Source: an uncultured Oscillospiraceae bacterium
GTDB taxonomy: Bacteria > Bacillota > Clostridia > Oscillospirales > Ruminococcaceae
Direction of reading: 5' to 3'
Assembly: GCA_964650705.1 (NCBI GenBank)
Contig: CAZYUJ010000008.1
Span: 6,762 to 70,761, forward strand
Length of the DNA: 64,000 bases
The notes under the pieces: model-generated
Database searches by the model: none
What the model was told of the DNA's origin: nothing
Seen by the model: only the letters and a program-made list of their open reading frames with translations
Position numbers and translations under genes: made by a program
Shown here: in pieces, positions 2,655 through 62,920 of the stretch
Layout: every line of letters begins with the position of its first letter
How positions within the stretch are numbered: position 1 is the stretch's first letter

Positions 2655-2681
2655 TTTTTAAGCGGATTTTGTGATGGATTT

Positions 2682-2760
2682 GGCGATGTCGCAAAATGGA
2701 GCCGAGCCGACGCAAGCGGCGAGCGAGGAGCATTGTGCGGCGGAGCGTGGCAGTGAAGTG
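2682..2760 (+). repeat. GC-rich G-skewed intergenic element, copy R1
   Basis: Lies in the divergent trpS/murJ-like intergenic region. Contains TGGAGCCGAGCCGACGCAAGCGGCGAGCGAGGAGCATTGTGCGGCGG, near-identical to copy R5. Confidence 0.7.
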
Positions 2761-11331: not shown

Positions 11332-11376
11332 TTTAATTTTCCTTTCATATATATTGATTATTATTTACTTAACTTG

Positions 11377-11465
11377 GCTGAGGGAGTGCAAGAGCGAGGC
11401 GTGGAAGCGCGCCCGCGAACGGAGTGAGCGGAGTGCGGTTTAGTGCCGAGCGCGGCGCCGGTGGG
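11377..11465 (+). repeat. GC-rich G-skewed intergenic element, copy R2 (inside the pheST leader)
   Basis: Lies between the T-box terminator and the pheS RBS. Homologous over about 70 nt to the first half of R9 (AGCGAGGCGTGGAAGCGCG...GTGCCGAGCG). Confidence 0.7.
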
Positions 11466-11467
11466 AA

Positions 11468-11710
11468 AATAAAAAAACGCCATGCCCCAATCGGGACAAG
11501 ACGCTATCTTGCTATACCACCCATTGTCAGAAGCCAACACTTCTCCCCGTTCATAACGCTTCGGATGCGTTTTTGCCTACAACAAAAAGCTTCAGCAAAA
11601 CCACTCGTGAGTGAACTTCAGATATCCTTAGAATAATGAGCTCACAGCTTTTGCTCATCTCTCTGAAAGCTTCGGATAACTTACTCTCTCAGTCATCGTG
11701 TTTAAATATC
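11468..11710 (-). ncRNA. T-box riboswitch leader, Phe specifier (UUC), controlling pheST
   Basis: Minus strand shows stem I AGAGAG, a specifier context GAAGUUCAC (UUC = plus-strand 11613-11615) and the T-box sequence AAUGGGUGGUAUAGCAAG. A terminator GCGUCUUGUCCCGAUUGGGGCAUGGCGUUUUUUU follows. Confidence 0.85.
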
Positions 11711-13007: not shown

Positions 13008-14162
<1,155 letters not shown>

Positions 14163-14516
14163 TTATTTATAAAATACTACATTCCCAAAGAACCAGCCGA
14201 CGATCTTGAAAAGCAGTTCCGTGAAGGAAAGATAGAGTCCAAAAAGTGCCATTATTATCGTAGGCACGACATATATCCACATTTTCCACTTTAACGCTTT
14301 CCAATACTCGATGGCACGGAAATATACAACTATCCAATAGATGAATAACGGGCCGGTCGCCAAAATGAAGAACTTGCTGCTGAAGCCCAAGAAAAGCGGA
14401 AGCGTTATGAGCAAAAGAGCATATAGACGCTTCATTTCTTTTTCGGGACGGTATTTTGCATCAAACGGATTGTCAGCGAATTTTGCAAGTGCGCTGAGGT
14501 CGGATTTAAGTCCCAT
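14163..14516 (-). CDS. Small hypothetical membrane protein
   Basis: 117 aa from the ATG at 14516, with about 3 TM helices. The longer ORF-track start (14630) reads through GC-rich element R3 and is unlikely. Confidence 0.6.
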   Translation of the reverse strand: MGLKSDLSALAKFADNPFDAKYRPEKEMKRLYALLLITLPLFLGFSSKFFILATGPLFIYWIVVYFRAIEYWKALKWKMWIYVVPTIIMALFGLYLSFTELLFKIVGWFFGNVVFYK

Positions 14517-14550
14517 ATAGTGTGTTCCTTTCTTATGTAAATTATCAGAT

Positions 14551-14626
14551 GACTGAGCGGCGATGTCGGACGCGATGCGCGCCCGAAGGGCGCAGGTCGC
14601 GGGCGGCGGAGCCGCGGGGTGTGGCA
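14551..14626 (+). repeat. GC-rich G-skewed intergenic element, copy R3
   Basis: Abuts the queA stop codon (14627-14629). Contains the hairpin CGCGA-TGC-GCGCCC-GAA-GGGCGC-AGG-TCGCG and the 16-mer GGCGGCGGAGCCGCGG shared with R8. Confidence 0.7.
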
Positions 14627-15670
14627 TCAAATGAAAATGCAGCTATCGCCAAAGCTGAAGAAGCGATATTTCTCCTCAACGGCTGTGCGATAAACATTCA
14701 TTGTATTCTCATATCCTGCGAAAGCGGAAACAAGCATGATGAGTGTGCTTTGAGGAAGATGGAAGTTTGTGATCAAGCCATCCAGAACCTTGAATTTATA
14801 TCCGGGATAGATAAAGATATCGGTGTTGCCTTCTGAGGCTTCGATCTTTCCTCTGAAGGTGGCGACACTTTCAAGAGTTCGGCAGGATGTCGTTCCGACC
14901 GCAATGACTCTTCCGCCGTTCGACTTTGTCTGATTTATAATGTCGGCGGTTTCCTGAGAGATCTCATAGTGCTCAGAATGCATTTTATGATCCAATACAT
15001 TATCCTCTTTAACAGGGCGGAAGGTTCCAAGACCGACGTGAAGGGTAACTCGTGCGATGTTGACTCCCCTATTCTTTAAATCCTCAAGCTGTTCTTGTGT
15101 GAAATGAAGACCTGCTGTCGGTGCGGCGGCAGAGCCCGTCTCTCGTGAATATACTGTCTGATAGCGTTCCTTATCCTCCAGCTTTTTGGTGATATAGGGA
15201 GGAAGCGGCATCTGACCGATCTCATCAAGAACGGAATAGATAGAGCCCTCACAGTTGAATTTTGCGACACGGTTTCCGTCCTCCAAGACATCAACGATCT
15301 CGGCAATAAGCTTGCCCTTGCCGAAGCTGAACTTTGTTCCGATCTTGGCTTTTTTTCCGGGACGGCACAATATCTCCCACACCATATTTTCACGCTGTTC
15401 CAAAAGCAAGAATTCGATAAAGCTGCCGTTATCTAACTTTTCACCATAGATTCTTGCGGGCAAAACACGGGAGTCGTTTATAACCAACGTGTCACCTTTT
15501 TTTAAGTAGTCGCATAGATTATAGAAGTGATCGTGCGTGATATCGCCGGTCTCGCGGTCACAAACGAGCAAACGAGAAGAGTTTCTGGGTTCGAGCGGAG
15601 TCTGGGCGATAAGCTCTTCGGGAAGATAGTAATCAAAGTCGGAAGTCTTTAAATTGTTTAAATCGAGCAT
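14627..15670 (-). CDS. queA: S-adenosylmethionine:tRNA ribosyltransferase-isomerase
   Basis: 347 aa with a QueA-type N-terminus ([19 protein letters not shown]) and full-length similarity. Confidence 0.97.
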
Positions 15671-39583: not shown

Positions 39584-39665
39584 GTCGGGGCGGCGGTGTG
39601 AGGAGGAGCTGTGCGGCGGCTTGAAAAGGCGGTCGCACAGAAGCTCCGAGCGCGCCGCCGTTGCA
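39584..39665 (+). repeat. GC-rich G-skewed intergenic element, copy R4
   Basis: Abuts the trmL stop codon (39669-39671). Can fold into an extended hairpin: CGGCGGTGTG/CGCGCCGCCG outer stem and GGAGCTGTGCG/CGCAC-AGA-AGCTCC inner stem. Confidence 0.7.
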
Positions 39666-41075: not shown

Positions 41076-41158
41076 AGGTGTTGGGCGAGCAGGTGTGCGG
41101 TGGAGCCGAGCCGCCGCGTTAGCGGCGAGCGAGGAGCACTGTGCGGCGCGAGCGGTTG
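41076..41158 (+). repeat. GC-rich G-skewed intergenic element, copy R5
   Basis: Lies upstream of pdxK. Contains TGGAGCCGAGCCGCCGCGTTAGCGGCGAGCGAGGAGCACTGTGCGGCGCG, near-identical to the R1 core. Confidence 0.7.
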
Positions 41159-41311
41159 ATGAAAGCAACAAACTTTGGTAAACATTTTACCACTTTTCAA
41201 GCAATGAAGCAATTATTTCTTTGATTATTTTTCTGCAATTCGTGCAAAATATCAGTGCAAATACATCTTTGGGCAAAAAGTTGTCGAATTTGCCTATGAA
41301 AGGAAGGAAAA

Positions 41312-43091: not shown

Positions 43092-43185
43092 GTGCCGCAA
43101 AGCAGTGCCGTCCGAGAAGGAGCGAAGCGGCGCGACGAAGTCGCAGTCGGCTCGAGCTTCGAGGGTGGCACGGTCGGTTGCACAC
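43092..43185 (+). repeat. GC-rich G-skewed intergenic element, copy R6
   Basis: Lies between the folT-like stop and the SpoIIM-like start. Has hairpins GCGAC-GAA-GTCGC and CTCGA-GCT-TCGAG, and shares GGTCGGTTGC with R9 and GAAGCGGCG with other copies. Confidence 0.6.
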
Positions 43186-47394: not shown

Positions 47395-48921
47395 ATGAAG
47401 AAGCTTTCAAAACTTTTACAAAGCAGAATGTTCATTACAATTTTGCTTTTGTTTGTTCAGCTCGTTATATTGATAGTATTTTTAGGCGTTTTGTTTGACA
47501 GATTCGCTGTTTACTATATCATTTCCTCTGTTGTTGCGCTTCTTTCGATCGTGGACATTGCTAATTCGGATATGAACCCATCGTTTAAGATAGCGTGGCT
47601 GGTTTTAGTGCTTATCGTTCCCTTCTGCGGAACTCCTCTTTATTTAATATTCTCAAAATCAAAGCAGGATTACAGGATATCAAAGCGGTTACGGAAGTAT
47701 AAGACTCTTGAAAGGCTGATGATAAGCAACACTGATGAAAATTTAGATGAGGTCGAAGATCAGGCTCCCGAAATTGCAAGGCAGATGAAATATATATCAA
47801 AAACTGCACTTGCACCCGTGTATAAAAACACGCAAACAAAATATTTCGCACAGGGCGAGGATTATTTTGAGGCTCTTTTATATGAGCTCAGGCGTGCACA
47901 GAGATTTATCTTTTTGGAATATTTCATCATCGAAAACGGAAAGATGTTCGATTCGATACTTGAGATATTGAAGGCAAAAGTGGCTCAAGGCATCGAAGTG
48001 AGACTCATGTTTGACGACTTGGGAACGATATCGAAGCTGACGAAGAACTATGACAAAGAGCTTGAGGCAATGGGACTTAGGGTTTCGGTATTTAACAGAC
48101 TCAGACCCTCGCTTGATACGTCTTTAAACTATCGCGATCATCGAAAGATCGTCGTGATCGACGGCAACGTCGCTTTCACGGGCGGAATCAACCTTGCGGA
48201 CGAATATATCAACGAGGTCGAAAAGTTCGGGCACTGGAAGGACACGGGCATTATGCTCAAGGGAGATGCTGTGACAAAGATGACCGAAACATTCTTACAG
48301 CTCTGGCATTTTTCTAAGGGTGAGTCCAAGATCGACCTCAAGGACTATGGCTGTAAGACGAGCAGCGAGAGCGACGGATATATCCAGCCGTTTGCGGACG
48401 GCCCTATGAATAACGATGAGATATGCGAAATGTGCTACATGGGGCTTATAAACAGTGCAAGAAAGAACATCTATATTACCACACCGTATCTTATCCTGGA
48501 CAATGAAATGCAAACGGCTTTATGCCATGCCGCAAAAAGCGGTGTTGACGTCAAGATAATAACTCCGCATATTCCCGATAAAAAGCTGGTTTTGGCTGTG
48601 ACGAGATCATATTACAGAGCGCTTTTGAAGGCAGGAGTTAAAATATATGAATACACTCCCGGATTTATTCATGCGAAATCGTTATCTGCTGATAGCGAGG
48701 TATGCGTTGTGGGCACAGCCAACTTTGACTTCAGAAGCTTTTATATGCACTTTGAGAACTGCGTTTTAGCCTATAAATCGAGCTGTGTTAATGATGTAGA
48801 GAAAGACTTCGAGCAAACTCTTGAGCTTTGCGAGGAGATCACATTGGAATCGATAAACAAAAAGGGCACGTTATATCGGCTTTTGCAGGCGGTATTAAAA
48901 ATATTTGCGCCGCTGATGTAG
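47395..48921 (+). CDS. cls: Cardiolipin synthase
   Basis: 508 aa from the ATG at 47395 (AAGGAGGA upstream), with two N-terminal TM helices and two PLD HKD motifs (HRKIVVIDG, IHAKSLSADS). Confidence 0.93.
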   Translation: MKKLSKLLQSRMFITILLLFVQLVILIVFLGVLFDRFAVYYIISSVVALLSIVDIANSDMNPSFKIAWLVLVLIVPFCGTPLYLIFSKSKQDYRISKRLRKYKTLERLMISNTDENLDEVEDQAPEIARQMKYISKTALAPVYKNTQTKYFAQGEDYFEALLYELRRAQRFIFLEYFIIENGKMFDSILEILKAKVAQGIEVRLMFDDLGTISKLTKNYDKELEAMGLRVSVFNRLRPSLDTSLNYRDHRKIVVIDGNVAFTGGINLADEYINEVEKFGHWKDTGIMLKGDAVTKMTETFLQLWHFSKGESKIDLKDYGCKTSSESDGYIQPFADGPMNNDEICEMCYMGLINSARKNIYITTPYLILDNEMQTALCHAAKSGVDVKIITPHIPDKKLVLAVTRSYYRALLKAGVKIYEYTPGFIHAKSLSADSEVCVVGTANFDFRSFYMHFENCVLAYKSSCVNDVEKDFEQTLELCEEITLESINKKGTLYRLLQAVLKIFAPLM

Positions 48922-48969
48922 CGCAGGGCGCGTGGGCGGAGCCGAGTGCGCGCGTGCGCGGGCGGAGCA
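48921..48969 (+). repeat. GC-rich G-skewed intergenic element, copy R7
   Basis: Starts at the last base of the cls stop codon. Contains GGGCGGAGCCGAGTGCGCG (compare R8 GGGCGGAAGCCGAGTGCTCGG) and two GCGCGTG heptamers. Confidence 0.65.
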
Positions 48970-50684: not shown

Positions 50685-50763
50685 AGCGGCGATTTCGCCG
50701 AGCGCGGGCGGAAGCCGAGTGCTCGGCGGCGGAGCCGCGGTGAGAGCCGCAGGAAGTCGGGGA
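50685..50763 (+). repeat. GC-rich G-skewed intergenic element, copy R8
   Basis: Lies between the ATPase terminator and the prmA start. Has the hairpin GCCGAG-TG-CTCGGC and the 16-mer GGCGGCGGAGCCGCGG (50725-50740), identical to R3 14602-14617. Confidence 0.7.
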
Positions 50764-62744: not shown

Positions 62745-62780
62745 GGATATTTCGAAAAATTCACAAAAAGTTTACAAAGT

Positions 62781-62920
62781 CAGCGAGGCGTGAAGCGCCG
62801 CGCACGGAGTGCTGTGGCGTTTCGTGCCGAGCGGTGGTTGGTCGGTTGCTTCTGAGCCGACGTCCGGCGCTGCGGCTCTTGCGGCGGAGCTGCAGGAGTC
62901 AGCGGCGGGTGGAGGCGGTC
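62781..62920 (+). repeat. GC-rich G-skewed intergenic element, copy R9 (double-length)
   Basis: Abuts the clpC-like stop codon (62919-62921). The first half is homologous to R2. The second half carries GCGGCGGAGCTGCAGGAGTCAGCGGCGGG, related to R1/R4/R5 words. Confidence 0.7.

Follow-up and report, generated by a model that had tools for sequence, protein, structure and literature searches.

Replication-polar, single-strand-folding hairpin repeats resembling REP/BIME elements in the genome of an uncultured Oscillospiraceae bacterium

REP-type repeats are textbook features of Proteobacteria, and their biology is still debated; to our knowledge, they have hardly been described in gut Clostridia. 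The REP, BIME and REPIN sequences of E. coli, Pseudomonas and Stenotrophomonas, together with their RAYT enzymes, form the closest described system (PMC6006769, PMC3733652, PMC3116915), and both the REPtron arrangement and in-frame REP insertions in RAYT genes have been described (PMC6006769). Elements of the IS200/IS605 group (IS608, ISDra2, PATE-type MITEs) carry strand-specific hairpins that are recognised as single-stranded DNA (ssDNA) on one 'top' strand; they excise from and insert into the lagging-strand template, on which Y1 enzymes act, and this results in an orientation bias and no target-site duplication (PMC6006769). Orientation-dependent ssDNA hairpins are also found in the ssi signals, i.e. 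the complementary-strand origin of phage G4, ssiA/ssiB of RSF1010 and the sso of rolling-circle plasmids, whose C-GAA-G/GCGAAGC mini-hairpins resist SSB and recruit primase (PMC13037366), and in integron attC sites, which are recombined as folded single strands.

Here we report nine GC-rich elements, R1 to R9, in a window of 64,000 nucleotides (C8:6762-70761) from G000, a draft genome of 1.76 Mb, 29 contigs and 46% GC. R1 to R9 are members of several related families of a 55-90-nt hairpin repeat, which constitute a lineage-specific superfamily. Our preferred reading, to which we give a probability of about one half, is that they are REP/BIME-like ssDNA repeats of a new, polar variant, mobilised in the manner of Y1-HUH elements with a RAYT-like gene as the candidate enzyme. 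Like REP and BIME sequences, the families found here (A to E) are GC-rich extragenic imperfect palindromes in tens to hundreds of copies, with several subfamilies per genome, mosaic clusters, a lineage-specific distribution and a preference for spacers that separate convergent or co-directional genes. They are short dispersed extragenic palindromes as canonical REPs are, but measure 55-90 nt instead of the classic 20-40 nt, and the canonical foot GT[AG]G (or CGTC) is absent, the foot here being GCGAG/CGAGC with tandem G.A. A REPIN is an inverted REP doublet of which both strands fold about equally, whereas each element here is one long, pseudo-complementary hairpin that folds on one strand only. 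The host also differs, being a gut bacterium of the Bacillota (Oscillospiraceae), and the strict replication polarity described below is not reported for REPs in PMC6006769, PMC3733652 or PMC3116915. Like integron attC sites, the elements are strand-specific imperfect hairpins whose stem base is conserved and whose apex varies; unlike attC sites, they come with no integrase, cassette array or R/L box consensus, and their copies are dispersed among housekeeping genes. What is unusual is the combination of a one-strand fold, its placement on the strand exposed as the lagging-strand template, modules shared across families, and different families at the same sites.

The first-pass annotation of the window had proposed that the GC-rich elements are homologous mosaics of shared modules, typical of composite families such as BIMEs or BOX and of slippage-prone elements. 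All of the strings that it quoted are present where it placed them (R1 2697-2743, R5 41101-41148, R2 from 11393, R9 from 62782), as is the exact 16-mer GGCGGCGGAGCCGCGG common to R3 (14602-14617) and R8 (50725-50740). Every pair of the nine elements was aligned locally, and its score was set against those of 500 shuffles that preserve dinucleotide composition. The R1-R5 alignment (score 38, z=13.4) was equalled in 0/500 shuffles, and no shuffle reached the scores of R2-R9 (z=8.0), R3-R8 (z=6.1) or the sharing between R6 and R9 (z=5.7). The proposed resemblance of R7 to R8 is weaker (z=3.1; 4/500 shuffles as high), and R3-R7, a pair that had not been listed, gave z=4.3 (2/500); other unlisted pairs were at background except for weak scores of R4-R5, R4-R6 and R2-R8 (z about 3). 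The elements are given below; copies were sorted by iterated nhmmer and two covariance models, of which the model named 'R1' detects family B (R2, R9) and the model named 'R2' detects family A (R1, R5).

R1, 2675 to 2754, plus strand: family A hairpin, located between divergent gene starts (covariance model R2 67.1 bits, E 1.4e-11; family A by nhmmer).
R2, 11390 to 11459, plus strand: family B hairpin (covariance model R1 65.8 bits), between a T-box terminator (11489-11705, minus strand) and the start of pheS (11331).
R3, 14555 to 14626, plus strand: family C variant (DNA fold -22.5 kcal/mol) with the ends of R8 (5' AGCGGCGATnTCG, 3' GGCGGCGGAGCCGCGG) and a different centre, a GCGCCC-GAA-GGGCGC hairpin.
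R4, 39584 to 39665, plus strand: unclassified G-rich long imperfect hairpin with the polarity of the others (DNA fold -25.2 kcal/mol, z -3.7), weakly similar to R5 and R6 in local alignment against shuffles (z about 3).
R5, 41079 to 41160, plus strand: family A hairpin (covariance model R2 71.9 bits), with a syntenic family A copy at C8:20404-20486 of the related genome G019.
R6, 43092 to 43185, plus strand: unclassified G-rich element aligning with R9 (z=5.7, 0/500 shuffles), with which it has the second-hairpin module GGTCGGTTGC in common; it also holds a GCGAC-GAA-GTCGC mini-hairpin.
R7, 48921 to 48969, plus strand: family C core GGGCGGAGCCGAGTGCGCG with the terminal modules missing (R3-R7 z=4.3, R7-R8 z=3.1), between convergent gene ends; a comparable core-only family C copy lies at C4:43788.
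R8, 50685 to 50763, plus strand: family C (nhmmer E 1.3e-13), whose stem GCCGAGC/GCTCGGC covaries with GCCGCGC/GCGCGGC and GCCGCAC/GTGCGGC of other family C copies.
R9, 62779 to 62920, plus strand: family B hairpin (62779-62840; covariance model R1 67.1 bits), then a second hairpin and a G-rich tail.

The same kind of sequence recurs throughout the genome. We scanned G000 for GC islands, defined as 40-nt stretches with at least 70% GC, and excluded as coding only those deep inside an ORF of at least 150 aa, a criterion that was used because stop codons are scarce in GC-rich DNA and plain ORF masks label several elements as coding. The scan returned 175 islands outside deep long-ORF DNA, of which 71 are strand-asymmetric and about 100 symmetric. 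In blastn the islands gave 732 HSPs, compared with 0-2 in ten dinucleotide-shuffled sets, and the largest single-linkage cluster built from these HSPs holds 91 islands. The first-pass annotation had named two findings that would undo its claim, a lack of significant similarity between the blocks and an equal frequency of the modules in coding DNA. Neither was observed, because the pairs exceeded their shuffles and module words, among them GGCGGAGCCGCGG, GCCGAGCGGTG and GCGAGGCGTGG, have a density 3-46 times higher outside deep-ORF DNA than inside it. The same data bear on the suspicion that there is no real family here, only GC-rich low-complexity composition or an artefact of assembly or binning. 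The elements are indeed compositionally extreme (about 70% GC, with G far in excess of C) in a 29-contig draft MAG of 46% GC; however, the excess of HSPs over the shuffled sets and the presence of orthologous copies at syntenic positions in independent assemblies exclude this explanation.

Family A (R1, R5) is present in 23-26 copies in G000 and family B (R2, R9) in 13-19, according to nhmmer and the covariance models; family C comprises R8, the variant R3 with its other centre and the core-only copy R7, and family D has 3 copies in G000. In family E, a GTCGGYGC-GAA-GCGCCGAC hairpin comes after a short hairpin that resembles family B. A basal stem, AGCGAG[GC]C...G[GC]CGAGCGG, is common to families A, B, D and E, and family C has the foot AGCGGCGA ... 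GCCGCGGTG. The apical cassette CGACGAAGGAGCG is present in A as well as in C copies, and R9, R6 and family E have a second hairpin, GTCGG..CCGAC, after their B-like units. The proposed mosaic of modules is therefore real genome-wide, in the form of the shared basal stem, the cassettes and the second hairpin, but most of the window pairs on which it had been built are copies of the same family and not reshuffled modules. The likeness to BIMEs is apt as an analogy, and the elements belong to neither BIME nor BOX, since the GT[AG]G foot is absent and there is no Rfam match. At Rfam gathering thresholds, a scan of the window found a T-box and a THF riboswitch only, and no window element matched.

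Class-1 units adjoin multi-hairpin 'clamp' units in composite clusters. Two clamp repeats beyond the window, at G000 C3:126367-126537 and C3:109718-109830, have a closing stem GGGGCGAAGCCCC...GGGGCTTCGCCCC around 2-3 perfect hairpins of variable sequence with C-GAA-G triloops, the whole being predicted to form a four-way junction; their DNA folds reach -64 and -51 kcal/mol (z -10.5 and -9.4). The approximately 100 symmetric GC islands genome-wide are of this clamp kind and are linked to the class-1 families by blastn. One clamp repeat gave the sole match in an E-value scan of 11 element loci, to the Chloroflexus-1 RNA (RF02936), which is likewise a multi-hairpin GC-rich repeated motif; the match is weak (27.5 bits against a gathering score of 181.5), and membership was rejected. 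A further hairpin, (T)CCCCCTC-GATAACT-GAGGGGG(A), occurs in three copies within 5 kb (G000 C1:12740-17626) and is unrelated to families A to E.

The first-pass annotation had left out the two most telling features: the fold is specific to one strand, and orientation is strictly tied to replication. A unit consists of a single long hairpin, imperfectly paired and 55-90 nt in length, that folds well on the G-rich strand only. In the family B alignment, 98.2% of the cells at 21 consensus pairs are paired, compared with 83% in column shuffles and 28-55% in slid registers, and both sides change in ten pairs, which 0/500 shuffles reached; as in family A, where compensatory changes affect 13 of 17 pairs around strongly conserved purine-rich internal loops, these statistics come from copies that are related and not independent samples. 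The paired changes could also stem from template switching within the hairpin instead of selection. Four G.U/G.T pairs of family B are nearly invariant, and CGAG stands opposite CGAG in the stem (C-G, G.A, A.G, G-C), at the base and, in family A, again inside. The wobble and G.A positions would become C.A, C.T and T.C mismatches on the complementary strand. Accordingly, the G-strand fold is the more stable one in 36/36 copies, with DNA as with RNA parameters, the DNA energies of the two strands differing by about 5 kcal/mol in the mean. Among the 191 GC-rich triloop perfect hairpins of the genome, 114 have GNA loops (GAA 87, GCA 14, GGA 13), with a C-G closing pair in 109 of them. Such d(C-GNA-G) mini-hairpins are exceptionally stable in DNA (PMC13037366, PMC3201870), and CGAG-rich DNA with sheared G.A pairs appears among the structures treated in PMC10085684. 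These features of the fold point to DNA rather than RNA as the folding molecule.

In the window, the plus strand is the G-rich one in each of the nine elements, and the neighbouring genes lie mostly on the minus strand. The orientation of the 71 strand-asymmetric islands is nearly uniform per contig (C1 26/26, C8 9/9, C4 10/10; one opposite island each on C3 and C11) and agrees with the local GC skew, calculated with the islands masked, in 63/71 cases (p=1e-11). The orientation changes on C3 somewhere from 84 to 103 kb, an interval that includes dnaA (88.8 kb). To the left of dnaA (3, 55, 79 and 84 kb) the islands are C-rich on the plus strand, with weak skew (-0.12 to -0.18), and the minus strand carries the family B copies at 55 and 76 kb; to the right (103, 107, 145, 146, 148, 190 and 217 kb) they are mostly G-rich on plus, the exceptions being a few weakly or oppositely skewed islands (139, 148.3 kb). 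GAA/TTC loops on this contig switch between 83 and 103 kb. The elements of G019 are likewise uniform (C1 15/16). Relative to the flanking genes the orientation is mixed, with 11 elements co-oriented, 15 anti-oriented, 16 in convergent and 7 in divergent spacers, and the near balance of co-oriented and anti-oriented elements rules out that orientation is set by transcription. Therefore, the foldable strand has the sequence of the leading strand, which is that of the parental lagging-strand template, and this template is transiently single-stranded. Such polarity could serve as a marker for replichore orientation in draft MAGs.

Adjacent elements of opposite orientation were seen as rare exceptions to the polarity, an A/A pair at G000 C1:50001-50166 and an A/B pair at G019 C1:89293-89453, and these pairs resemble BIME or REPIN doublets. 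The elements are irregularly spaced, and contig C2 (240 kb) holds one GC island where the equally long C1 holds 26. The GC content of C2 is also lower (42.9%), and its genes follow the GC skew closely in direction; this contig could be a replicon of its own, have been acquired recently or have been binned wrongly.

The stability of the G-rich strand raises the question of RNA. The elements could be structured RNAs made from this strand, acting as small RNAs or as cis elements of mRNAs (3'-end stabilisers, attenuators or protein-binding sites). With RNA parameters the G-strand folds are very stable (mean -42 kcal/mol for family A and -37 for B), G.U pairs with covariation are classic RNA signatures, and REPs, which are frequently transcribed, function as RNA elements (PMC3733652); convergent spacers, moreover, are over-represented among the element sites (16/49, or 33%, against 15% of all intergenic spacers). 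Yet orientation tracks replication and not the flanking genes, and most window neighbours are on the opposite strand, so that their transcripts would carry the poorly folding C-strand. R2 is a case in point: because it lies between the minus-strand T-box terminator and the pheS start, its C-rich strand is the transcribed one, and read-through transcripts from the T-box leader therefore carry that strand. The loops are GNA triloops and not GNRA or UUCG tetraloops, no Rfam family matches the elements, and a search of sequencing runs with element words returned no RNA run and two DNA metagenomes holding 4% of the words. Taken with these observations, a primary role as RNA appears very unlikely.

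The replication polarity is equally what would be expected if the elements were signals that the host uses on the lagging-strand template, with selection maintaining them and spread being secondary. They might then be ssi-like entry points for primase or the primosome, SSB-resistant markers of forks or restart, or carriers of a polar signal for recombination, for instance a Chi-like word in the conserved ...GAGCGGTG tail. The strict polarity that flips at dnaA favours such signals, and so does the C-GAA-G mini-hairpin, which is the motif at the priming sites of phage G4 and RSF1010 ssiA (PMC13037366). ssi signals and the elements are alike as orientation-dependent ssDNA hairpins with these mini-hairpins; the former are single-copy and carried by phages and plasmids, whereas here there are dozens of chromosomal copies in several families of predicted hairpins. 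The irregular spacing and the single island on the 240-kb contig also speak against host signals, which we regard as an unlikely primary explanation. Less likely still is a stronger form, in which the chromosome would carry a whole system of strand-specific ssDNA signals, SSB-resistant mini-hairpins read by the replisome or the repair machinery, as an undescribed class of replication-polar GNA-triloop repeats. If that were true, the ssDNA signals would mark primase or primosome entry, fork restart or polar recombination.

The distribution of the elements offers a further view on their maintenance and spread. We surveyed 41 related genomes, 25 from the same genus and 16 from other families, all gene calls being crude and all assemblies drafts. 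Family B was found in 3/41 (G000, G003, G019) and family A in 2/41 (G000, G019), and a covariance-model search found the families absent from 22/25 genomes of the genus. Matches with E values as low as 1e-15 to 1e-21 come from three independently assembled genomes and no others, those of this bacterium and two sister species. Because of their absence from 22/25 genomes of the genus, the elements are not essential to replication, and this patchiness again weighs against maintained host signals. The G019 assembly, which is 84% complete, holds 28 family A and 17 family B copies in DNA that is 81-87% identical to that of G000. At the orthologous site of R1 the core is about 95% conserved, compared with 81-84% identity in the flanks, and the lower stem has been rewritten on both arms with pairing kept through compensatory changes; a core conserved beyond its flanks and a stem kept through many paired changes are what selection for a host signal would be expected to leave. 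The orthologue of R2 lacks 30 nt at its apex. Of the suggested slippage-prone behaviour, a tandem pattern was not seen, and inspection of the window sequences revealed no tandem arrays of units; one orthologous copy does differ, by an indel of 30 nt at the apex of the hairpin. At the site of R3, G019 has the 3' tail alone, beside a gene indel.

Gene content also differs at some of these sites. A comparison of G019 C10 (L048 15225-17012) with window positions 14145-14630 places an extra gene of about 1.3 kb, possibly a glycosidase, at the exact place of R3, between a small membrane-protein gene and queA. G002, G003, G017 and G018 have an extra gene of about 1 kb between the T-box and pheS, which is missing in G000 and G019, where R2 lies at the junction (window 11332-11705). 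Of the three window sites compared, two thus have an element at a breakpoint in gene content.

Of 20 family A sites of G019 that were compared with G000, family A occupies the site in G000 too in 7, and many copies are accordingly old and static. At least three sites hold a different family in G000 (family B at C11:6284 and C1:197762, and a family C copy at C1:141679), two more hold unclassified GC islands, and three are without such an element. This gain, loss and swapping of sites between species is a further argument against elements kept in place as host signals. At one site, G000 C13:35288-35513, neither G000 nor the outgroup G003 has an element, and G019 has an 83-nt family A copy, which indicates a gain after the split of G000 and G019. 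The empty site reads ...TTTTTTAGGAA directly joined to ACAAAAATC..., and the filled site reads ...TTTTTATAGG, then the insert TGGCGAGGC..GCCGAGCGTGC, then AAAAAAATC...; the insert is bounded by the ends of the basal stem, with no evident target duplication and with boundaries that are ambiguous by a few nt. A classical MITE was rejected as the type of element, given that the ends are not inverted repeats and that no target duplication is evident at this filled/empty site. Two other length differences between G019 and G000 in the syntenic 22 kb are ordinary indels and not elements.

Returning to our preferred reading of mobile REP/BIME-like repeats, the mechanism that we envisage would run as follows. 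The G-rich strand would pair through Watson-Crick pairs, invariant G.T pairs, the tandem G.A of CGAG/CGAG and C-GNA-G loops, in a manner that the C-rich strand could not follow. Located on the lagging-strand template, the foldable strand would be left single-stranded at the fork, where copies may be gained, exchanged and lost by a cut-and-paste or copy mechanism without target duplication. Mobilisation would thus resemble that of REP/REPIN sequences and of IS200/IS605-type elements, which are moved by Y1 HUH enzymes, and a single RAYT-like gene would be the obvious candidate for the enzyme. Shared stem-base and cassette modules, together with the re-use of intergenic sites, could then give rise to the mosaic pattern. 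The position of the foldable strand on the lagging-strand template and the lack of an evident duplication at the one filled/empty site are as in IS200/IS605 elements. What is absent is the pair of left- and right-end hairpins with guide and cleavage tetranucleotides, in place of which there is a single 55-90-nt hairpin, and no resident IS with matching ends was seen in G000.

The single Y1 HUH gene of G000 (C3:98159-98667) lies downstream of gyrA, at a distance of 10 kb from dnaA. Its product has its best match to NCBIfam NF047646 (REP_Tyr_transpos) at 69.2 bits, under the cut-off of 80, compared with 38 bits against the IS200 model and 42 bits against PF01797 (cut-off 23), and its MPDHIH and WQRGYF segments align with the HuH and Tyr motifs of PDB 2EC2. 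At C3:98119-98690 the gene forms a REPtron-like locus with two flanking inverted hairpins and two in-frame ones. It is akin to described RAYT genes as a single-copy gene with inverted flanking hairpins and an in-frame insertion between HuH and Tyr, as in subclass 2.4. The flanking hairpin, GGGCGGGC-N6-GCCCGCCC (GGGCGRSC-N6-GSYCGCCC), exists in 7 copies, all within 16 kb (C3:98-114 kb), and its sequence is unrelated to families A to E; one doublet of this type lies directly beside a family E unit (C3:104954-105120). A REPtron in the full sense is thus not what we find, as the abundant families differ from the hairpins that flank the gene, and these hairpins were rejected as a master copy of families A to E on account of their different sequence and their 7 local copies.

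The RAYT orthologue in G003 has 68% identity, the same synteny and a conserved arrangement. In G019 a trypsin-like protease gene takes the place of the RAYT-like gene at the syntenic locus, and the gene was not found elsewhere in this 84%-complete assembly, in which element numbers are undiminished; full copy numbers despite the missing gene would suit host signals. Both the orthologue and the elements are absent from the other 22 genomes of the genus, and the co-occurrence of gene and elements rests on one small clade (G000 and G003 with the gene, G019 with elements and no gene). An alignment scan for relatives of the RAYT-like protein gave 80 loci in many phyla, with at most 39% identity except for one (48%, best segment), a single-protein scan of genome contigs gave nothing, and the two covariance models found no match in the 675 kb around the 80 loci. 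As judged from sequence, the RAYT-like gene is a candidate for the enzyme that mobilises families A to E, an assignment that is plausible but unproven because its flanking hairpins are a separate family and G019 keeps the elements without the gene.

The elements offer a clean natural system in which the ssDNA life of extragenic palindromes at the fork, the moving enzyme and host co-option can be tested, and they probably give rise to spurious ORF calls and to breaks between contigs. On the contig that carries the RAYT-like gene, at G000 C3:114400-114950, a tRNA gene is followed by repeated tRNA-3'-end-like segments, each with its own terminator, which may be remnants of integrase attachment sites.
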